Assembly (NCBI GenBank): GCA_964570765.1
Contig: CAZMZF010000008.1
Coordinates: forward strand, 27,301 to 91,300
Direction: 5' to 3'
Length of the DNA: 64,000 nucleotides
Source: an uncultured Ignavibacteria bacterium
GTDB taxonomy: Bacteria > Zixibacteria > MSB-5A5 > RBG-16-43-9
Made by a program: the position numbers and the translations under genes. This document shows, piece after piece, positions 4,110-61,635 of this stretch. The notes beneath the pieces were generated by a model. That model did no database searches. It had not been told where the DNA came from and was given only the letters and a program-made list of their open reading frames with translations. Numbering within the stretch: position 1 is the first letter of the stretch; each line of letters begins with the position of its first letter.

Positions 4110-4276
4110 GTAGGGGCGACCCGGCAGGTCGCCCCTACAGTTTCTTTTTTCTCATAGGCTGGGCTCCCAGCCCAGCAAAACGAGAATGTAGTTGCTCGAT
4201 TTATCGAGCATCTCGAAGCATCCGGCCATTATGTCAGATGTTTTTTACATAGGGCAGGAGTTCAACCCCTGCCCCG
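4110..4276. repeat. Cluster of 4 REP-like hairpins
   Basis: gtaggggcgacccggcaggtcgcccctac (4110-4138), taggctgggctcccagcccagc, gtagttgctcgatttatcgagca, tagggcaggagttcaacccctgccc. Confidence 0.8.
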
Positions 4277-4631: not shown

Positions 4632-5234
4632 ATGAAAAAAGTAGTTATCCTGCTTTTCGTCTCAGCTATACTCTGGTTGTGTTCAGCTACAGCGGGATTG
4701 GCAGTGCCGATGACACTTTTCTTCGATAACCACGACCTGGACTTAGGTACTGCGAGCCAGATAAACTTGAATACCCAGTATCAGTCTGCTTACGGCATAT
4801 GGTTCCAGGAGGTCTACCGTTATATAGATGACCGTGACCCTTTTGTAGACCCCTACCCTGATACTTACGGGAATTTTGGAATCTCTAATGGATTCCTCCA
4901 GCAGAATGGTCTTGTCTCCACCCAGGGGAGAGTCAATTTTCTCTTCCCCACCCCTTATCTCCATTTCGACTGGTGGACAATTCCCGAAAATGCATTAACC
5001 ATCGAGGCATTTAACTCAGTCGGTATCTCCCAGGGTAGTTTATCTGCTTTGAGCGGTTCCGGCACGAATTCCTTAGTCGGCGATATTTCCTATGTTAAGT
5101 TCAACGACGCCGGTGGTTTTGTCCAACTCTCCAACATACGTTATGACTCACCTATCCCGGAGCCAGGTACTCTTTTGCTTTTAGGCACTGGTCTTCTGGG
5201 CTTGGGTGCTTTCAGGCTTAGAAGGAAAAAGTAA
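4632..5234 (+). CDS. PEP-CTERM sorting-domain surface protein
   Basis: Signal peptide; C-terminal PIPEPGTLLLLGTGLLGLGAFRLRRKK. Confidence 0.92.
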   Translation: MKKVVILLFVSAILWLCSATAGLAVPMTLFFDNHDLDLGTASQINLNTQYQSAYGIWFQEVYRYIDDRDPFVDPYPDTYGNFGISNGFLQQNGLVSTQGRVNFLFPTPYLHFDWWTIPENALTIEAFNSVGISQGSLSALSGSGTNSLVGDISYVKFNDAGGFVQLSNIRYDSPIPEPGTLLLLGTGLLGLGAFRLRRKK

Positions 5235-5306: not shown

Positions 5307-5352
5307 GTAGCGCGACCCTTTTCCTAATTATGGATCCGTAGGACAGGGTCGC
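5307..5352 (+). repeat. GTAG REP (gtagcgcgaccct family) with 20-bp GGATCC micro-insert
   Basis: gtagcgcgacccttt-[cctaattatggatccgtagg]-acagggtcgc. Second copy at 6452-6497; empty form gtagtgcgacccttttagggtcgc near 50069. Confidence 0.75.
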
Positions 5353-6409: not shown

Positions 6410-6630
6410 ACTTGAGGTTTTTCGTAAAACCCGTAGGACGTTTTTTCTTTCGTAGCGCGACCCTTTTCCTAATTATGGATCCGTAGGACAGGGTAGCTTT
6501 TCTTTTTTGTAAGAAATTTGCATTTTGGTTAGAAAATTCCTGTTTTAATTTTAAGATTTTTGTTGACTTAAGCCTCTTAATTTCCGTAATTAATATAGAA
6601 ATAGGGAATAACCTCAAAGAAAACATTAAA

Positions 6631-8690: not shown

Positions 8691-9177
8691 GTAGAGACGC
8701 ATCGCTATGCGTCTCTACTGTTCTCCGTCGACAATCTATTTATTAAAATATTTCTGGCAAGATTAATTTTTGGGCTTTTTTATTTTTTTATCTTTTCCCG
8801 CGTCTGATCATCCCCCGTAGGGGGATGGCACCCTCTATATTTTGGCGACCCAAATGGGTCGCACTACAGTGCTGGGCTTGATAAATCAAGCCCCTACAAA
8901 ACTGTAGGGGTTCGATTTATCGAACCCAAATTGGTGAATGGACCTCACCCTTACCCTTTCCTAAGAGGAGAGGGGAATTTTTATGGCAAGTATTTTAGCG
9001 GGGCTGGGAGCCCCGCCTACGAGAAAGATGTATTATTACTTCACGTAGGCGGAGCACCCTGCTCCGCAAATTGGCTGTCAGAACAGGCAGGAATGCCTGT
9101 TCTACCGTTTTACTTCATCCCCAAACAAGTTTGGGGATGGCACCCTGATGCAGGGGCGTATAGCAATACGCCCCTAC
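8691..9177. repeat. Dense mosaic of about 11 different REP-like hairpins (BIME-like)
   Basis: Includes gtagagacgcatcgctatgcgtctctac, gcgacccaaatgggtcgcactac, gggcttgataaatcaagcccctac, gtaggggttcgatttatcgaacc, gcggggctgggagccccgcctac, gtaggcggagcaccctgctccgc, gaacaggcaggaatgcctgttctac, and two catcccc..ggggatggcaccc units. Confidence 0.85.
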
Positions 9178-12046: not shown

Positions 12047-12136
12047 ACGTGACCGTTATACGTGAGCGTTATTCGTGGTAACATTTAATCGGTCATTGCG
12101 AGGGGTTGTAGGGGCGACCCGGCGGGTCGCCCCTAC
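12047..12136. repeat. Degenerate heptamer array plus perfect GTAG REP
   Basis: cgtgaccgttatacgtgagcgttattcgtg, then gtaggggcgacccggcgggtcgcccctac (12108-12136). Confidence 0.75.
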
Positions 12137-29538: not shown

Positions 29539-30696
29539 CTACTGAAAACTCAATTTGATATTCACAATTTCCGGTCTGTTGCCGATACGCACTGGAGGAC
29601 CCCAGGTGCCAACACCGGAGGAGACATATATCTGTGTATTATCTTTCTTTTTATATCCCCAGCTTACTTCATAAATCATATTGGTGATATAATTAAAGGG
29701 CCAGAGCTGGCCTTGATGGGTATGGCCTGAAATCTGAAGGTCTACGCCGTTTTCAACTCCTTGGTCCAGATTGAAGGGCTGATGATCCAATAAAATGAGA
29801 GGATAACTCTTATTGACTTTGGTCAGTAACTCTTCCAGTGGTTTTCTCATCTTACCGGTAAAGCTTTTTATACCTCTATCTTCCCTGCCTATTATATAAA
29901 AGCTGTTGTTGATTTTTATTGCACTATCCCTCAAGACTGTTACATTGTGGTCTTCCAGATATTTACATGCTTTTTCAACTCCTCCGATATATTCATGATT
30001 GCCGGTGATGGCAATGACTCCGAATGTCGATTTTATGTTCCTGAGTGCCTGGCCCAGGTTATATTTGATGACCGGAGCTAAATCCTCATCCATAATGTCT
30101 CCAGGCAAAAGGACAATATCAGGCTTAAGTTGATTTATCCGGTCAACGATCTGATTAAATCTCGATTTACCAATTAGAGTTCCAAGATGGATGTCTGAGG
30201 CAATCACGAGGTTTACTGTTTTTGTGTCATCAACTGATTTAGGGATGGTCAAATGAAGTGTTTTCATGCGGGGGTTTAGTGAGTTTATATGTCCTGCAGT
30301 GATCAGGATTGTAACAACCCCGATGGATACCAGAGCTATAATCTGCTTTGCCCTGGCATAGTCATCGGTTATGAAAGATGGAAAAAAAGGGAACAAGTGA
30401 TTAAACAGCCTTAAAAAATCTAATAGCAGGATAATCAGAAAAAAGTAGAGCATCGCAGATAGCCAGAAAGAGCCGATCCATATCATTACATTGCTGGGTA
30501 TGGCAAGCCAGAATCTCTCCAATACCCTCCCAGCGATAAAAGAGAAAGCAAGAATCAGGAATAATATCAGATAATATACTCTCAGAGGAGAACTCGGGGG
30601 GATTGATTGCCATCCTCTAATAAAAATATAATAGTTGACCAGTCCGTAAATTGTAAAGAAGATGGTAAAAAACAGGATGAAATTTATGGTTTTCAT
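29539..30696 (-). CDS. Membrane-anchored metallophosphoesterase (YkuE-like)
   Basis: N-terminal TM helices; SDIHLG, GDIMD, GNHE, DHQP, SGHTHQGQ. Confidence 0.92.
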   Translation of the reverse strand: MKTINFILFFTIFFTIYGLVNYYIFIRGWQSIPPSSPLRVYYLILFLILAFSFIAGRVLERFWLAIPSNVMIWIGSFWLSAMLYFFLIILLLDFLRLFNHLFPFFPSFITDDYARAKQIIALVSIGVVTILITAGHINSLNPRMKTLHLTIPKSVDDTKTVNLVIASDIHLGTLIGKSRFNQIVDRINQLKPDIVLLPGDIMDEDLAPVIKYNLGQALRNIKSTFGVIAITGNHEYIGGVEKACKYLEDHNVTVLRDSAIKINNSFYIIGREDRGIKSFTGKMRKPLEELLTKVNKSYPLILLDHQPFNLDQGVENGVDLQISGHTHQGQLWPFNYITNMIYEVSWGYKKKDNTQIYVSSGVGTWGPPVRIGNRPEIVNIKLSFQ

Positions 30697-30717
30697 TGGT
30701 AGTGTTTAAAAAAGTCT

Positions 30718-30785
30718 GTAGGGGCGACCCATCCTTCGGCTTCGCTCAGGACAGTGAGCTTGTCGAACTGCCGGGTCGCCCCTAC
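30718..30785. repeat. GTAG REP interrupted by a 39-bp hairpin element
   Basis: gtaggggcgaccc-[atccttcggcttcgctcaggacagtgagcttgtcgaact]-gccgggtcgcccctac. Removing the insert gives the exact reverse complement of the 12108 REP. Confidence 0.85.
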
Positions 30786-30845
30786 AAAGAAATTTCTACT
30801 CCTGCTTAAAAGGCGAATCACTTTGACTCGTAATTCTCTATATAG

Positions 30846-35134: not shown

Positions 35135-35335
35135 TTTTGACTCCTTTGTTTAGTTTTTGATAGTTTTTGTTCCTCTTCTCTATCTAAAATAATAGGGTTT
35201 TTGGCAGGATTTGTCAAGAAAAAAAGACAAAAACTTTAGATTAAAAATAAAATTTATGAATAGGGAGTTAAAGAAGTTGTAGATCAGGAGCACAGGGCTC
35301 CTGACCTACTATTATGGACTAATCACTGTATTAAG

Positions 35336-35411
35336 GGTGGGTGACGGGATTTGAACCCGCGACCCTCAGGGCCACAACCTGATGCTCTAACCAGGCTGAG
35401 CTACACCCACC
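35336..35411 (-). tRNA. tRNA-His(GTG)
   Basis: Cloverleaf with G-1/C73; anticodon arm TCAGG-TT-GTG-GC-CCTGA; GGTTCAAATCC; CCA not encoded. Confidence 0.95.
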
Positions 35412-35491
35412 GTATTGGTTAATGGTTCATAGTTAAAAAAGTAAAATCATTTTACCATTAACCAACCACCATGAACTACCCACTGCTTTTA

Positions 35492-35565
35492 TACCCCCGG
35501 CCCGATTCGAACGGGCGACCCTCTGCTTAGAAGGCAGATGCTCTATCCACCTGAGCTACGGGGGC
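35492..35565 (-). tRNA. tRNA-Arg(TCT)
   Basis: Anticodon arm TCTGC-CT-TCT-AA-GCAGA; T-loop GTTCGAAT. Confidence 0.95.
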
Positions 35566-35641
35566 AAATTTAGTGATGAGTGGTCAGTGATCAGTTATTA
35601 TTTTCTAACCACTATAAACTGATTACTGATCACTGTTTTTC

Positions 35642-35715
35642 TCGGGGTGGGGGGATTTGAACCTCCGACAGCATGGTCCCAAACCATGTGCGCTACCAGG
35701 CTGCGCTACACCCCG
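35642..35715 (-). tRNA. tRNA-Pro(TGG)
   Basis: CGGGGTG/CACCCCG acceptor stem; anticodon arm CATGG-TT-TGG-GA-CCATG. Confidence 0.95.
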
Positions 35716-35795
35716 TTACCTTTCGATTCTAAAACCATAAACAGTAAATAATACTACTTTAGATAATGTTTTTTCTCCAATCTAATACGTGAATT

Positions 35796-35823
35796 AATAT
35801 AAGGATGAACACTTTATTGTCAA
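35796..35823 (-). promoter_or_regulatory. Sigma70-type promoter of the tRNA operon
   Basis: TTGACA-N16-TATATT on the minus strand. Confidence 0.65.
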
Positions 35824-35998
35824 GCAAACTTTTTGTCTCTGAAATTAAAGAGAGTGGTCGGGCAAGGGTGCCCGACCTACGATGATTCTTAAATAATACT
35901 TCGTAGGCGGGGCTCCCAGCCCCGCAAAATCAGTTTTTCAGAAATTTCTTTATTATTTTTTATAGAGACGCATTGCTTTGCGTTTCTACAGACAAAAT

Positions 35999-38799: not shown

Positions 38800-39086
38800 G
38801 TAGAGACGCATCGAATGCGTCTCTATAATGGACAGAACGATGTTCTGTCCCTACGGATGAATAAACCCACCTTTGGGGGCAAGGCGGGTTTACCGGATTA
38901 TCAATTTCGTAGCGCGAACCTGCTTGTGTCCCGCCAAAGGCGGGATCAGGTTCGCTTTTTGAGTGATGGATGGAGGGCTAATCCGCCTCTGGCGGACAAG
39001 ACCTTGTCCGAATTTGGATCCATAGGAATGGCCTTCCTCTACATTTTTTGTAGGGGCGTATTGCAATACGCCCCTCCTATTTTCTC
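38800..39086. repeat. Dense REP mosaic with several micro-inserts
   Basis: gtagagacgcatcgaatgcgtctcta, gacagaacgatgttctgtccctac, gtagcgcgaacct-[24 bp]-tcaggttcgc, a REP carrying both tccgcctctggcggacaa and gtccgaatttggatccatagga, gtaggggcgtattgcaatacgcccct. Confidence 0.8.
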
Positions 39087-42354: not shown

Positions 42355-42425
42355 GTAGGTCAAGCATGTCCACCCTTCGATAAGCTCAGGATGGTGAGCA
42401 ACACCGAACCACAGGTCTGCTTGGC
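42355..42425 (+). repeat. GTAG REP (gtaggtcaagcat family) interrupted by a 39-bp hairpin element
   Basis: gtaggtcaagcatgtcc-[acccttcgataagctcaggatggtgagcaacaccgaacc]-acaggtctgcttggc. Empty relatives near 43159, 43813, 44881 and 45147. Confidence 0.8.
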
Positions 42426-43018: not shown

Positions 43019-43322
43019 TCCGCCAGAGGCGGACAAGAGTTCAAGGGGAAAAAGGAAGTAGGTAGGCGCAAGCTTCAGCTTGCGGATGGATTACATTGTA
43101 ACGCAGACATAAAGTCTGCGGCTACCAAGGATAAACGATGATTCGTGTTAAGTTTTGTAGGTCAAGCATGTCTGTAGGACTGCTTGACAAATGAATGGTT
43201 ATGTAGCGGAAAGCTCTCGTGGGTGTCCGCCTGAGGCGGACCAGCCCCGTAATAGTGGTTTTTCAGAGCTCTCTGTAAAATGTCAACCACCCTGTTTTTG
43301 GCGGGGATGGTTAACCTGCAAA
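43003..43322. repeat. Octamer array plus REP mosaic with micro-inserts
   Basis: aggttcaa-aggtttaa-[tccgccagaggcggacaa]-gagttcaa; gtaggcgcaagcttcagcttgcg; gtaacgcagacataaagtctgcg; gtaggtcaagcatgtctgtaggactgcttgac. Confidence 0.8.
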
Positions 43323-43764: not shown

Positions 43765-43922
43765 TAAAAGTTCGGAGGTTTTGACTAATTAAACCATTTC
43801 AGAAAAAGTATTGTAGGTCAAGCATGTTCAGAGAACTACTTGACAAAATGTAAAATGTCAACCGCCCCGCTCTTGGCAGAGATGATTGACCTACAAAACT
43901 TAAGCATCTGAAAGGAGGGTTT

Positions 43923-44880: not shown

Positions 44881-45178
44881 GTAGTTCAAGTAGGTCCACA
44901 GAACTTGACAAAAAAGCTGTAGGGCATGGCTTTAGCCATGCGAAAATGAAGCAACCCTGTCCGAATTTGGATCCTTTGGAAAGGGTTGCCCTACGAAAAA
45001 TTTGATGTGGCGGAAAGTTATCAAGCTCTTGAGACTATAACCCTTAATTTTTTGGAAACCCGAAGGTTTCCGCTACATAATAATTTACTTCAATGTTCAA
45101 GTTTATTAAACATTCCTGTCTGACCACAAGGAACAGACAAGTCTTGTAGGTTAAGCATGTCCATTGGACTGCTTGACT
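44881..45178. repeat. REP mosaic
   Basis: gtagggcatggctttagccatgc; gcaaccct-[gtccgaatttggatcctttgga]-aagggttgccctac; gaaacccgaaggtttccgctac; gtaggttaagcatgtccattggactgcttgac. Confidence 0.8.
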
Positions 45179-45979: not shown

Positions 45980-46657
45980 TTATTTAACAGGCTGGATACA
46001 ATTCTCAATGTCAACGCTGGGATTTCCTACCAGAGAAGATACTTCATACATTTCAGTCAAATCAACAGGATAGGGGGTAAGGAGTTTCATAAGGGTGTTT
46101 ATGGCTTTTAAGTTCGGGTCTATCCAGATATCTTCATTTTCAGGTCTGAGAATAACCGGCATCCTTGGGTGGATTTTCCCTACTAAATCATCTGCTTCTG
46201 TGGTGATGATAGTATAGGAACGGATCGTTTCACCTTCTGGATTTTTCCAGAGGTCCCATAATCCAGCAAATGCAAAAAGCTCTCTGGATTTCAAAACTAT
46301 CCTAAATGGGGATCTTTTACCTTTTTTCTCTGTCTTTTTCCACTCATAATATCCATCCGCAGGGACTAAACATCGCCTTTTAGAAAAAGCACTGCGAAAA
46401 GAAGGTTTTTCAGCTACTGTTTCTATTCGGGCATTGATCATTTTGTTCCCGATTGACTCTTCTTTTGACCAGGAGGGGATTAACCCCCATCTCATAGGGA
46501 GCATTACCCTTTTGCTCTCTTCATTTGTTAAAACTACAGGATTGACCTGACTGGGAGCGACATTATATCGTGGAAAAAATTCTCCTTCGTACTCTTTAAC
46601 CTTGAATCTTTGTATAAGGATTTCTTCTTTAACGGTTATGGTATAACGACCGCACAT
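45980..46657 (-). CDS. SOS response-associated peptidase (SRAP/YedK/HMCES family)
   Basis: MCGRY start, RYNVAPSQ, MRWGLIP, INARIE, CLVPADGYYEW, HPRMPVIL. Confidence 0.95.
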   Translation of the reverse strand: MCGRYTITVKEEILIQRFKVKEYEGEFFPRYNVAPSQVNPVVLTNEESKRVMLPMRWGLIPSWSKEESIGNKMINARIETVAEKPSFRSAFSKRRCLVPADGYYEWKKTEKKGKRSPFRIVLKSRELFAFAGLWDLWKNPEGETIRSYTIITTEADDLVGKIHPRMPVILRPENEDIWIDPNLKAINTLMKLLTPYPVDLTEMYEVSSLVGNPSVDIENCIQPVK

Positions 46658-46730: not shown

Positions 46731-46945
46731 TGGTAAGTCAGACATTCTGGTACTGTTGCTCAACTCCTGGATATAGCATATGGAGTCAGGAGTCGTTAAT
46801 GTAGGGACAGCCCTAGTTGAGCTTTGCGAAATCCAGTTTTGCAGGATGGCTGTCCTCATTGGGGTTAGGACAGGGACAAGCCCTGTCCCTACATAAGATT
46901 TCTCCCAAAAAAGACTTCGGGAACAGCCCCAGGATGTCTGTTCTA
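46731..46945. repeat. REP doublet (REPIN-like) and further hairpins
   Basis: gtagggacagccct..ggctgtcct.. paired with gacagggacaagccctgtccctac; gaacag..ctgttcta. Confidence 0.7.
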
Positions 46946-49136: not shown

Positions 49137-49952
49137 TTAACGGACTTTTAAACTGGGGTTCCCGTAGCAATAAAGACAACTATGATAACAGTGGAACCAC
49201 CTGCCTATATTTATAGATTTAGTGCAGTGACAGCTTATCCTCTGGGTTTTATCCTTAACTAAAGAGCAAAGCTCTTTTTGTGGATGAAGCTCTATCAGGG
49301 TTTTACCATCGATACAGCCTTTTGAGGTGATCTCCGGCAGGACACAGGTGGAAACTTCCAGTCCAAGCTTTTCAACCTGGGGGGTCATTTTTTTCAGAAT
49401 GAAACCTTCAATCTCTTTTAAAGGATGTTCTATTGTCTGGAAATTACATTTACTCAATCGTTTTTTTACCTTAGGATATAGGGTTACATAAGAGGTTATT
49501 ACCCTTTTAACACCCAGAGGCTTAAGGAAGTTTAAGATATGCTGAAAAATGGTTGGGTCAATATTGGTCAGGTGATTTTTTTTATCATAAACCACCTCGA
49601 TTAAGGGGTCATACCTTAAAGCCAGCCTCAAAGGAGAGCCTAAGAAATCTACTAAATCTGGTAAATTCTTTAAAACCATATCAGTCTCAGGTGCTTTCGG
49701 TTCTAAAGGAGTTCCTCCTAAGCCAGTTACAGTCAATAAAAGATAGAGCTGATCAAAAGTCTTAAGATATTTTCTCAGGAATTTATTTTTGAAGATGTTC
49801 TGAGGATTTTTAGTCCAGAGAACTAAGGTATGGATATTCTTTTTTCCGATCTCTTCTAACCTCTGGATCAAATAATCCGGATAAAAGCTCAAAAGGTCAA
49901 CTCTCCGGCTGGCGGAGATGATTTTTTTAAGTTCAGGTTGGATTATACTCAT
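49137..49952 (-). CDS. DUF1848-family protein (radical-SAM-like fold)
   Basis: IISASRRVD...FYP, VLWTKNP, RYDP, GCID, QR..CHC..S..IG..CYHSCLYCYG. Confidence 0.85.
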   Translation of the reverse strand: MSIIQPELKKIISASRRVDLLSFYPDYLIQRLEEIGKKNIHTLVLWTKNPQNIFKNKFLRKYLKTFDQLYLLLTVTGLGGTPLEPKAPETDMVLKNLPDLVDFLGSPLRLALRYDPLIEVVYDKKNHLTNIDPTIFQHILNFLKPLGVKRVITSYVTLYPKVKKRLSKCNFQTIEHPLKEIEGFILKKMTPQVEKLGLEVSTCVLPEITSKGCIDGKTLIELHPQKELCSLVKDKTQRISCHCTKSINIGRWFHCYHSCLYCYGNPSLKVR

Positions 49953-50190
49953 TTCAAGGCATTCTAAGGGGAAAGTTAAACTCCACTTCTTTATGTAATT
50001 TACTTCCAGTAAAATTTAAGAAAGGGAAATCTGTTTAGCAAGTTAATTGATAAGGAGCTTTGATTTTCGTAGTGCGACCCTTTTAGGGTCGCTTGTTTTT
50101 CCTCGTAACGTCCGACACAAGAGTCGGGCGTTACGAATTTTCTTGTTTTTACTCTTGAACTTTTGAACCCTTGAACCTTTGAACCTTTCT

Positions 50191-50616
50191 TTACGGACAG
50201 TCCTGACAGGGCTTGGGTCCTCCCTTGAACAGATAATTTATCTTGTAAACCACATCTGAAACTGTTTCCTTTCCATCACAATTCACATCTCCTGCGATTA
50301 AGGGCACTGGTGCAGGACCACCTTTGAATAGATAGTTTATCTCACAGACCACATCCGATACGGTTATCTTCCCATCTCCATTACAATCCCCGCACAGATA
50401 AACATAAAAACTCCAATCCTGTTGGTCTGACCATCTTTCCGCTCCCCATTTATCATAGGATTTTACCTTCCAATACCAGAGCTTAAAGTCAAGGCTATCT
50501 GTAAGGGTAGTGTCGAGCAGGCTATCATAGACTATTGTTGAGTCAGGGTTAAAGACGATAGACCTGCTGAGGTATAAATCATAGCGAACCGTGTCATCCG
50601 GGTCAGGGTCGAAGAC
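50191..50616 (-). pseudogene. 5'-truncated FN3-like plus dockerin gene remnant
   Basis: Hand translation, not in track: VFDPDPDDTVRYDLYLS..WYWKVKSYD..CGDCNGDGKITVSDVVCEINYLFKGGP..GDVNCDG..CP*. In-frame TAA immediately upstream, within a repeat element. Confidence 0.85.
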
Positions 50617-50660
50617 TTACCACACTGAGTTAATCGAAGGGCGGGCATGCTTGACCTACA
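50606..50660 (-). repeat. GTAG REP with 39-bp-family element fused to the dockerin remnant
   Basis: Minus strand: gtaggtcaagcatgccc-gcccttcgattaactcagtgtggtaagtcttcgaccc. Confidence 0.7.
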
Positions 50661-50829: not shown

Positions 50830-51687
50830 TCACTCTGATCCATAAATTGAATCCTTTACAACTTCCTGAAGCTTGAGTATCGCGTTATGTAAAGTTCTTC
50901 GCTCAAATCTGATCTCCTCCAAATCGCCTTGCAGGCCACCTATATTTTTTACTCCATTTTCTACCATCAAAATTAAACTTTTCTTTTGACCAAGTGCATA
51001 TCCTTTTTCGTCAATAAGCCATCCAGAAGTATCGTAACTACCTTTTTTAGCCTTCGTTCGTCTGGTCATAACAATTAAGACGAGATCACAACGATCGATT
51101 CTTCCCTTGATTTTATCAGAGATTCTTCTGGCCCTCGGTCTTTCACCAGTAACCACATTTATACCAAGAATAGAGAGGGAATTCAGAACAGCGTCTACAA
51201 CTATGGAATCTTTTTTCGCAAAACTGCGACCCACAAATATCGAAGTTTTTGGTACTTCTGTTATGGCGGCAAGCCCTTCATCCGAGGTTTCTTCAACCAC
51301 TCGACGCTTCTCTTTCAGGGTTCCAAGGTATTTCTGCAAGTCAAAAAGTGCTTGATTGTGAAACTGGTCAAATTGTTCTAATTGTGTGCCGAAAGGGGCC
51401 GAAAGAACAGAGCGAAGTGTCGTGGCATTTAGTAAACAAGTCGTAACAAGATCCGGCGATCTAGGAGCATACATATGTTCACAGAAAATATAGTTCTCCA
51501 TTAGCCAAGTCTTAAGTTGATAGTATTGAGCTTCAAGCTTCTCAGTATATCCCTCCTTGGATGCTTGAGCAACGATAGAATATAATTTGCGCCATTTCCA
51601 TATAAAATCTTCTACAAGCTTTATTTGTCTCTCAAGTTCTTTTACAATCTTTTCATTCTTAATCTTCATCTCAATTATATCTTGCAA
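50830..51687 (-). CDS. Helical N-terminal domain plus C-terminal TIR-like nucleotide-binding domain (possible defence effector)
   Basis: IFVGRSF..ISDKIKGRIDRCDLVLIVMT..SGWLIDEKGYALG..LILMVE TIR signature with a Glu at the catalytic position. Confidence 0.75.
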   Translation of the reverse strand: MQDIIEMKIKNEKIVKELERQIKLVEDFIWKWRKLYSIVAQASKEGYTEKLEAQYYQLKTWLMENYIFCEHMYAPRSPDLVTTCLLNATTLRSVLSAPFGTQLEQFDQFHNQALFDLQKYLGTLKEKRRVVEETSDEGLAAITEVPKTSIFVGRSFAKKDSIVVDAVLNSLSILGINVVTGERPRARRISDKIKGRIDRCDLVLIVMTRRTKAKKGSYDTSGWLIDEKGYALGQKKSLILMVENGVKNIGGLQGDLEEIRFERRTLHNAILKLQEVVKDSIYGSE

Positions 51688-53287: not shown

Positions 53288-53594
53288 TATCGCTCCTCCT
53301 CTCTTTATACCGGTATTTAGAATAGCTTGCTTATATCCAGATACTCAGTCTTTTGATCTTTTTAAATGATTCTTCCTTTCAAGTCTTGACATTTCTTGTT
53401 TTCTAAAAACTTTTTTACTAACTCAATAATAAGAAAGTATCCCTTCTTTTCTGAGTTTATCGAATTCTTTCTTAAAGAATATTATCTCAAGTTCTTTTTG
53501 TCAAGCAGTTTTATGGATATACTTGACCTACAAAATTGCTTGTGGCATTGTCACGATAAGAATTCTGTAGGGGCAATTCATGAATTGCCCCTAC

Positions 53595-61563: not shown

Positions 61564-61635
61564 CTGGGGCGCCAGGATTCGAACCTGGGAATGCGAGATC
61601 CAAAGTCTCGTGTCTTTCCACTTGACTACGCCCCA
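61564..61635 (-). tRNA. tRNA-Gln(TTG)
   Basis: TGGGGCG/CGCCCCA acceptor stem; anticodon arm CGAGA-CT-TTG-GA-TCTCG; GGTTCGAATCC. Confidence 0.95.

Follow-up and report, generated by a model that had tools for sequence, protein, structure and literature searches.

The 39 nucleotides that interrupt a REP hairpin in the window (i.e. the whole 64-kb stretch of DNA analysed here) can best be explained as a member of a widespread family of non-autonomous palindromic micro-elements that is moved in trans, probably as single-stranded DNA, a reading to which we assign a probability of roughly 0.55. That the element is a discrete mobile unit moved in trans is very likely in itself. The sequence-only reading of this DNA had proposed a discrete small hairpin unit, and the proposal was borne out by a constant length of 39 nt, by presence or absence in matching hosts and by enrichment in the loops of repeats. 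The window is part of a chromosome of 40% G+C, and its nearest named protein relatives were mainly Zixibacteria MAGs with 62–70% identity.

The first host hairpin, REP-A, spans positions 30718-30785 and consists of GTAGGGGCGACCC, the 39 nt and GCCGGGTCGCCCCTAC. It had been claimed that 39 extra nucleotides lie in this REP and that their deletion restores the complement of a REP at 12108. Exact sequence comparison confirmed the claim: removal of 30731-30769 yielded GTAGGGGCGACCCGCCGGGTCGCCCCTAC, which matches the reverse complement of the 12108-12136 REP exactly. None of the other 39-nt registers tried on the filled REP-A restored the empty sequence. The filled 68-mer folded as a single long hairpin (-20.8 kcal/mol, DNA fold). 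A homologous 39-nt insert had also been claimed for an unrelated REP at 42355, and this too was upheld, as REP-B (i.e. GTAGGTCAAGCATGTCC-loop-GGACTGCTTGAC) is unrelated to REP-A and four sister REPs of the filled hairpin are empty (Table 1). The third, degenerate copy of the sequence-only reading stood in part only. Approximately 65–70% of the insert is kept beside a REP-B left arm, the right arm having been lost, but an nhmmer profile search gave no match to this copy at E<=10. Copy 3 fits the earlier consensus with 0.00 chance matches expected, a fit that is circular as the consensus was drawn partly from copy 3 itself; it is a plausible relic of the 39-nt element.

Table 1. Positions of the 39-nt element, its host hairpins and their empty counterparts in the window
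Feature	Position	Strand	Basis or remark
Copy 1 of the 39-nt element	30732..30770	+	nhmmer E=2e-11; register 30731-30769 in the sequence-only reading
Host REP-A hairpin, filled	30718..30785	.	arms GTAGGGGCGACCC / GGGTCGCCCCTAC
Empty REP-A	12108..12136	.	exact reverse complement of filled REP-A minus 39 nt
Empty REP-A variant	4110..4138	.	one substitution in loop
Copy 2 of the 39-nt element	42373..42411	+	nhmmer E=4e-7
Host REP-B hairpin, filled	42355..42425	+	REP-B loop holds copy 2
Empty REP-B	43157..43188	+	sequence comparison
Empty REP-B	43813..43844	+	sequence comparison
Empty REP-B	45146..45177	+	sequence comparison
Empty REP-B	53500..53531	-	sequence comparison
Copy 3, decayed (plausible relic)	50605..50641 (core 50608-50638)	-	adjoins REP-B left arm 50643-50659

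The window as a whole was very dense in GTAG-type REP hairpins: in 64 kb, 40 or more copies were counted that represent no fewer than 15 different stems, and they often form intergenic clusters (e.g. at 4110, 7534, 8691-9177, 12808, 15838, 35279-35925, 38800-39075, 44919, 46868 and 53567). Four tRNA genes were located at 35336-35715 and 61564-61635 (-), three of them clustered with REPs on their flanks, and a search of the window with Rfam 15 at the gathering threshold returned only 4 tRNAs. The REP-B-rich stretch also contained an SRAP (SOS-response-associated peptidase) gene, a DUF1848 gene and an ORF with a weak TIR-domain match (45980-46657, 49137-49952 and 50830-51687, all on the minus strand), with no evident tie to the 39-nt element.

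Read 5' to 3', the unit has the form X1-TTCG(A/G)C-N2/3-GCTCA-X1'X2-TGAGC-N2/3-G(T/C)CGAA-X2' and measures 39 nt, occasionally 38–40. Two conserved 14-nt arms (i.e. TTCGAC-N2/3-GCTCA and its complement) are each bracketed by complementary 3-nt triplets, and the whole folds into helices of 6 bp and 5 bp round a small internal loop, with X1'X2 as a hexaloop on top. The main regularity concerns these triplets, with X1 and X1' being reverse complements of each other, as are X2 and X2'. Copy 1 reads TCC-TTCGGC-TTC-GCTCA-GGA-CAG-TGAGC-TT-GTCGAA-CTG, so that both brackets (TCC/GGA and CAG/CTG) are complementary; copy 2 reads CCC-TTCGAT-AA-GCTCA-GGA-TGG-TGAGC-AAC-ACCGAA-CCA, with the right bracket intact and one mismatch in the left. 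The consensus of the sequence-only reading fitted the copies that it described but overlooked both covarying brackets. Covariation sets the ends of copies 1 and 2 one base to the right of the earlier register (Table 1). In most cases two registers one base apart fit equally well, as the element is often preceded by the same base with which it ends; for copy 1, the earlier register restores the empty REP-A exactly and the covariation register needs one loop substitution.

The bracket rule was quantified in two sets of copies. In the strict-pattern set, which was defined by the exact pattern of the two good window copies, the loop triplet was complementary to the 3' triplet in 121/131 copies as compared to 40 expected. 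In the stem-only set, in which loop and flanks were unconstrained, the left bracket was an exact complement in 111/129 copies and the right bracket in 109/129, where approximately 21 were expected and the best shuffle gave 34–38. Single pairs in register matched in 369/387 and 364/387 cases (94–95%) versus 8–44% with the register slid by 1–3 nt. Pairing past 3 nt was limited to a weak fourth pair, and flank-to-flank pairing immediately outside the element did not exceed that expected from composition. Twelve different bracket triplets were in use. The two brackets of one element were never identical (0/93 versus 16 expected), and exactly one YCC...GGR bracket was present in 78/93 elements. Every X starts with a pyrimidine and every X' ends with a purine, and hence the borders flank/X1, X1'/X2 and X2'/flank are all purine^pyrimidine steps. 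It also follows from bracket complementarity that joining the ends, either in a circle or in a head-to-tail pair, would produce a junction reverse-complementary to the hexaloop; one head-to-tail pair of elements was seen (L107). Copies that break the rule were mostly one base away from a common bracket class, and the pattern suggests that complementarity is set at the birth of a copy and then decays in place. The rule was also observed in other arm arrangements (51/67 and 38/66 cases), from which the basic module can be taken to be the 20-nt X-arm-X'.

No strand asymmetry of folding was found that would mark a single strand as active, and both strands folded equally well (-8.06 versus -7.99 kcal/mol, DNA parameters). 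In the outer stem, G.T outnumbered A.C (12:2, counted by eye), a difference too weak for use. A permissive Rfam scan of 30680-30820 produced generic hairpin matches to miRNA precursors that were far below threshold.

A scan of public collections with the strict pattern recovered the 39-nt unit in at least 119 MAG stretches from about ten phyla in a collection of genome contigs, and in at least 8 viral contigs. A looser pattern, in which four stem blocks were fixed and the loop and flanks left free, matched at least 120 metagenome contigs and at least 21 viral stretches. Copy numbers and taxonomic range are samples from the matches listed. Every one of the at least 119 genome matches listed was a MAG, and no cyanobacterium was named among them. 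Some carriers of the element are available as complete genomes (e.g. CP070839.1, CP070735.1 and CP070660.1). By record title, the groups were Desulfobacterota/'Deltaproteobacteria', Planctomycetota, Nitrospirota, Zixibacteria, Ignavibacteria, Omnitrophota, CPR (Microgenomates, Parcubacteria, Saccharibacteria and Berkelbacteria), Elusimicrobia, Binatia, Gammaproteobacteria and others. The loci ranged from 35 to 64% in G+C, and the arms were near-identical across about ten phyla and the viral contigs among the matches listed. Only 20-nt half matches were obtained when full copies were sought in PLSDB plasmids and INPHARED phages.

Exactly 39 nt were present or absent in six unrelated host sequences, two of which are REP-A and REP-B of the window. 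Filled and empty versions of the GTAGGGGCACGT-TGC-ACGTGCCCCTAC REPs of viral contigs (L002/L004/L009) differed by 39 nt; the GGGCTCGA-TGAA-TCGAGCCC REPs of two Zixibacteria were filled in L030 and empty in L108; and the GTAGGGACAGCC REPs of Ignavibacteria and Zixibacteria were filled in L089/L094/L113/L124 and empty in L076. An AT-rich repeat of ~190 nt in one MAG was filled in L040 and empty in L071/L080, with flanks that were 85–90% identical over 130–150 nt. The element was also found within itself: 25 of 262 unique copies lay within another copy as exact insertions of 39 nt. One site, TGAG^C (either strand), beside the internal loop of the 3' arm, accounted for 16 of the 25, and at this site all 15 of the inner copies with a readable orientation were parallel to the outer copy. 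The absence of a target duplication, as claimed in the sequence-only reading, was substantiated by tests on 126 copies, which revealed no direct repeats of 2–4 nt at the borders. In 61/126 copies, as compared to 47 expected, the element was preceded by a base identical to its last one, a weak excess. Insertion after a CC dinucleotide, which had likewise been claimed, holds for the three window copies only; across 262 copies the target was a purine^pyrimidine step, with a purine before the element in 86% and a pyrimidine after it in 84%.

The filled REP-A site was recovered in two Logan assemblies, in one with an identical sequence (L001) and in the other with 9 mismatches in 2.4 kb (L131), and in JGI/ENA contigs (L132/L133) of a 95%-identity strain, where the element carries two substitutions. 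The short-read contigs L001 and L131 terminate exactly in the middle of the hairpin, a behaviour that would suit an assembly artefact, but five independent assemblies show the filled site and the family occurs in hundreds of contigs, which leaves an artefact with a practically negligible probability. Presence/absence differences at orthologous sites, which the sequence-only reading had expected between related genomes, were not seen among the relatives compared: the 95% strain was filled, and relatives of 84–90% identity lacked the host REP and bore different intergenic hairpins. All of the empty/filled pairs are paralogous or cross-species, so that precise deletion is inseparable from insertion.

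The genomic context of the copies was set against random positions and shuffled flank pairs as controls. Stems of 7 bp or more flanked 19% of copies and 2% of controls, an ~8-fold enrichment. The proposal that the element targets hairpins was therefore supported by this enrichment in loops, but about three quarters of the copies lay outside any obvious hairpin, namely in heptamer arrays, in longer AT-rich repeats and nested in their own family. Nine or more different families of GTAG REPs serve as hosts. Self-similarity with a period of 7 was detected in 17% of 35-nt flanks as compared to 1.2% of controls, and was specific to this period. Imperfect heptamer arrays round copies (ATTTCGG, TAACCAG, TGATCAG, GTGAACG and TTGGTCA-like) were seen at L005, L006, L024, L033, L038, L040, L047, L048, L050, L059, L062, L069, L071, L080, L081, L111 and L127. 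By a crude ORF call, 93/131 copies were intergenic and 33/131 were located inside ORF-like frames. No orientation bias to neighbouring ORFs was observed (20 co-directional, 28 opposite, 13 and 12 mixed), which argues against a role in RNA or as a terminator.

All five copies seen of one REP family, GTAGGCGRGGTTCTC...CAACCYCGC, were filled with a near-identical element (L023, L088, L112, L117 and L073). These copies came from 'Candidatus Zipacnadia' and one other MAG, and their REP stems differed by compensating changes. As judged from these sequences, the composite of REP and insert probably spreads as a unit in this one lineage, and part of the copy number there may be due to hitch-hiking rather than insertion.

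A copy beside an HUH/Y1 gene, which the sequence-only reading had proposed to look for, did not emerge. All-against-all clustering of ORFs from ~130 loci yielded generic families only and no recurrent protein family beside the element, and no pair of arms spaced 0.2–4 kb apart flanked an ORF. Inspection of 20 ORFs of the window revealed ordinary metabolic genes and no transposase, and a crude regular expression, which is a weak test, matched no HUH...Y motif in any ORF of the 64 kb. The possibility that the sequence is the end of a known IS200/IS605 element was rejected on the lack of a recurrent neighbour gene or linked protein family in the ~130 loci, of an ORF flanked by arms or half-sites, and of an IS605/HEARO RNA match in the window. 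The 5' end was also examined as a poxvirus-type topoisomerase site, (C/T)CCTT, and this idea was dropped as the predicted cut falls off the border of the element. A literature search for the arm sequences or their pseudo-peptides found no paper printing them in such a context.

Each copy is made up of two 20-nt modules in inverted order, and on folding the inner bracket halves come to lie in the hexaloop and the outer halves at the ends. The 39-nt unit enters or leaves as a whole at purine^pyrimidine steps, leaves no target duplication and favours unpaired DNA, for instance the loop at the tip of a REP hairpin or the internal loop of the element's own hairpin; an element residing inside a REP can be amplified along with it. 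As for the mechanism of movement, an enzyme encoded elsewhere may read the conserved arms; the brackets may fix the two cleavage points through base pairing, with a guide logic as in IS200/IS605; and transfer may take place as single-stranded DNA, possibly via a 39-nt circle with a loop-complementary junction. The difference between X1 and X2 would keep the left and right ends distinct and avoid a perfect palindrome devoid of a loop. Since the long hairpin bars the loop halves from the element's own ends, guide pairing would need either an alternative fold or pairing in trans. The former could consist of two 3-bp stem-loops, each showing an arm as a 14-nt loop, and the latter could involve a partner molecule, e.g. 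the loop against a circle junction.

The fullest version of this mechanism, a self-defining single-stranded micro-transposon whose ends are set by pairing with its own loop and whose 39-nt circle enters exposed hairpin loops by means of an enzyme shared by many uncultured phyla, is put forward tentatively and we regard it as rather doubtful. The same degree of doubt attaches to HUH-type single-strand chemistry as the means of movement, which is argued by analogy. Points that count against the best explanation are the failure to find an enzyme or autonomous parent, the lack of an empty orthologous site between the strains compared, the geometry of the brackets in the long hairpin, the equal folding of both strands and the position of most copies outside a clear hairpin, as well as two differences from IS608, namely that both brackets travel with the element and that there is no conserved target tetranucleotide. 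In eukaryotic Helitrons, insertion takes place at A^T and leaves no duplication, and the 5'-TC...CTRR-3' ends go together with a subterminal hairpin; the resemblance of the 39-nt element to them may be taken as a lead.

Other explanations were weighed against movement as single-stranded DNA. The element could be a site for a tyrosine, serine or integron-integrase-type recombinase that acts on folded DNA, in which case the arms would be inverted binding sites round a 6-bp crossover and a small circle would recombine at its joined ends. The layout of 14-bp inverted arms and a 6-nt centre resembles that of recombinase core sites, and the identity of the loop with the reverse complement of the end junction, the head-to-tail pair in L107 and the weak one-base identity at the borders are in keeping with such a site. 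We nevertheless consider it unlikely, given that no recombinase gene recurred nearby in the ~130 loci, that a matching core would be needed whereas the targets share a purine^pyrimidine step only, and that a 39-bp double-stranded circle is physically implausible. A minimal MITE, in which the two terminal inverted repeats of a classical DDE insertion sequence abut and are mobilised by the transposase of the latter, would account for the 14-bp inverted repeats formed by the arms and for a ~110-bp element of a Phyllobacterium plasmid that has the same arms at both ends. This explanation appears quite improbable, however, in view of the lack of a target-site duplication, the failure to find a parent IS with these ends among ~390 loci, bracket covariation that has no place in DDE chemistry and a length far under MITE sizes of 70–300 bp (PMC3733652).

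Conservation of the arm sequence across phyla well beyond the needs of pairing, together with the predominantly intergenic position of the copies, would be compatible with a functional motif under selection, either a protein-binding site or a structured RNA/DNA signal, for which empty and filled states would arise via recombination between repeats. Against this stand the lack of gene-orientation bias and of an Rfam match, the nesting of copies in copies and in unrelated repeats, the decay of copies in place (L132 and copy 3) and the fraction of copies inside ORF-like frames, and a motif of this kind is accordingly given little probability. The idea that REP loops grew locally, through template-switching during replication or through extension of the palindrome, so that no discrete mobile unit exists, draws on the presence of other inserts in REP loops of the window (families F and H, below) and on complex self-complementary REP loops of up to 27 bp in other bacteria (PMC3733652). 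The same 39 nt with constant ends recurred in stems unrelated to each other, in repeats that form no hairpin and across many phyla; local growth is largely refuted because a local process would not recreate the same sequence, and it is very improbable.

Several other inserts were encountered in the course of this analysis. Family F comprises REP-loop inserts of ~22–27 nt with the form TCC-N3-7-GGATCC-N3-6-GGA, in which the bracket logic is the same and both brackets are TCC..GGA; members were located at 5307-5352, ~6452-6497, 44951-44994 (-) and ~39005-39029 (-) of the window and at ~3103-3160 of L124, and empty REPs with the same stem at 8845-8867 (-) and 50069-50092. Family H is a loop insert of ~35 nt, GTTGAGCTTTGYGAAATCC-N8-GGR, observed in two different REPs (window 46801-46855; L272 and L273, upstream of a ferredoxin-like gene). 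The first half of the insert looks like a diverged version of an arm of the 39-nt element, and the bracket of its second half covaries between the two copies (TCC..GGA versus CCC..GGG). A 24-nt half element, TCC-arm-GGA-CAGA, occupies a hairpin loop in L063 (~395-418), with empty paralogues of the hairpin in the same MAG (L014 ~5063-5148 and L045 ~216-294), and could be either a truncated copy or a lone insertion of the 20-nt module. As a rule, the 20-nt module was rejected as an independent insert, most of the 'solo' arms being parts of split or nested copies. Viral contig L006 contained four near-identical variants with a 5-nt loop, CCA-arm-TGGCC-arm-CGG, at 2220, 3407, 4282 and 5671, which are intergenic and ~0.9–1.4 kb apart. 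The Phyllobacterium plasmid element (L129 1418-1520) has TGG-arm-CCA at each end, and in a Moraxella plasmid (L130 1502-1551) the order of the arms is reversed, with a spacer of 12 nt. Bracketed arms therefore occur in other layouts in cultured Proteobacteria, which makes the 20-nt module seem older and wider than the 39-mer.

If the main reading is correct, the minimum size at which mobile DNA can have defined ends would fall to 39 nt, and a two-bracket rule would be added that is testable with compensatory mutations. Should the self-defining single-stranded version be true, the element would be the smallest mobile DNA with coded ends and far wider in distribution than REPs or the small dispersed repeats (SDRs) of cyanobacteria. 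On the main reading, the element would flag sites of exposed DNA hairpins in living cells, and the conservation of its arms from CPR to Planctomycetota points to an unrecognised, horizontally shared enzyme. A REP and its insert spreading as one unit would represent an arrangement of layered parasites. On a practical level, copies of the element break short-read assemblies at their own centre (L001 and L131) and probably seed spurious small ORFs in MAG annotation.

Comparison with known systems places the element close to several of them. It shares the inverted arms of DDE-type MITEs and differs from them by the absence of a direct target-site duplication. Insertion sequences that target REPs (e.g. 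IS1397) make target duplications. These sequences measure ~1–1.5 kb and carry transposase genes; the 39-nt element has in common with them the targeting of REP palindromes, which is described for IS1397 and others by Clément 1999 and Tobes & Pareja 2006, as cited in PMC3116915 and PMC3733652. Long self-complementary loops of up to 27 bp occur in some members of GTAG-3, GTAG-14 and GTAG-15 (Di Nocera et al. 2013, PMC3733652), where they are described as loop variants and are not read as insertions; they are not known to have any sequence in common with the 39-nt element. In the peel-and-paste transposition of IS200/IS605 (IS608 and ISDra2), as outlined in PMC3479197, internal guide bases pair with the cleavage sites. 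The lack of a target duplication, hairpin ends and covariation between an internal segment and the ends are common to these elements and the 39-nt unit. In IS608, however, two subterminal hairpins lie apart from each other, a transposase gene is present and a copy of the fixed 4–5-nt target stays behind in the flank, whereas the 39-nt element has one hairpin and no gene, carries both paired triplets and shares only a purine^pyrimidine step as target.

REPs and REPINs resemble the element in being short imperfect palindromes that are mostly intergenic, and a guide model based on single-stranded DNA and HUH chemistry has been proposed for them (PMC3116915, PMC3479197, PMC3733652). The element matches REPs in size and placement, being an imperfect palindrome within 20–40 bp that is mostly extragenic. 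REPs have GTAG (or CGTC) at the 5' foot of the hairpin, which is needed for binding and cleavage by RAYT (PMC3479197, PMC3733652), and RAYT finds CT using two bases of GTAG (PMC3479197). The 39-nt element lacks a 5' GTAG; its first triplet is YCC or another Y-S-S, and its ends do not fall at CT. REP stems are specific to a lineage, whereas the arms of the element are conserved across phyla. The missing GTAG tag and the likeness of the arms in distant phyla rule out that the element is itself a RAYT-type REP; GTAG belongs to the host REP only, and the element sits inside REPs and is not one itself.

The closest precedent is that of the cyanobacterial SDRs, with which the 39-nt element was compared by description. 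Elhai et al. reportedly defined SDR1-8 of Nostocaceae (2008, Genome Res 18:1484) as small dispersed repeats with a shared hairpin fold. In the account of this work in PMC5861425, SDRs measure 21–27 nt and are reported only in Nostocaceae, and SDR5 is placed inside a HIP1 palindrome; the 2008 study is also cited in PMC3116915 and PMC2884548. Both the SDRs and the 39-nt element are tiny, dispersed, folded as hairpins and proposed to be mobile, and both occur inside other repeats as well as embedded in arrays of heptamers. For the 39-nt element, the hosts were REPs, the element itself and the ~190-nt repeat, and the arrays were evident from the period-7 flanks. As compared to SDRs, the 39-nt element is longer, follows a two-bracket rule and is spread over many non-cyanobacterial phyla. 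The 39-nt family thus looks undescribed, sharing the behaviour of SDRs and adding to it the bracket rule and the range of phyla.
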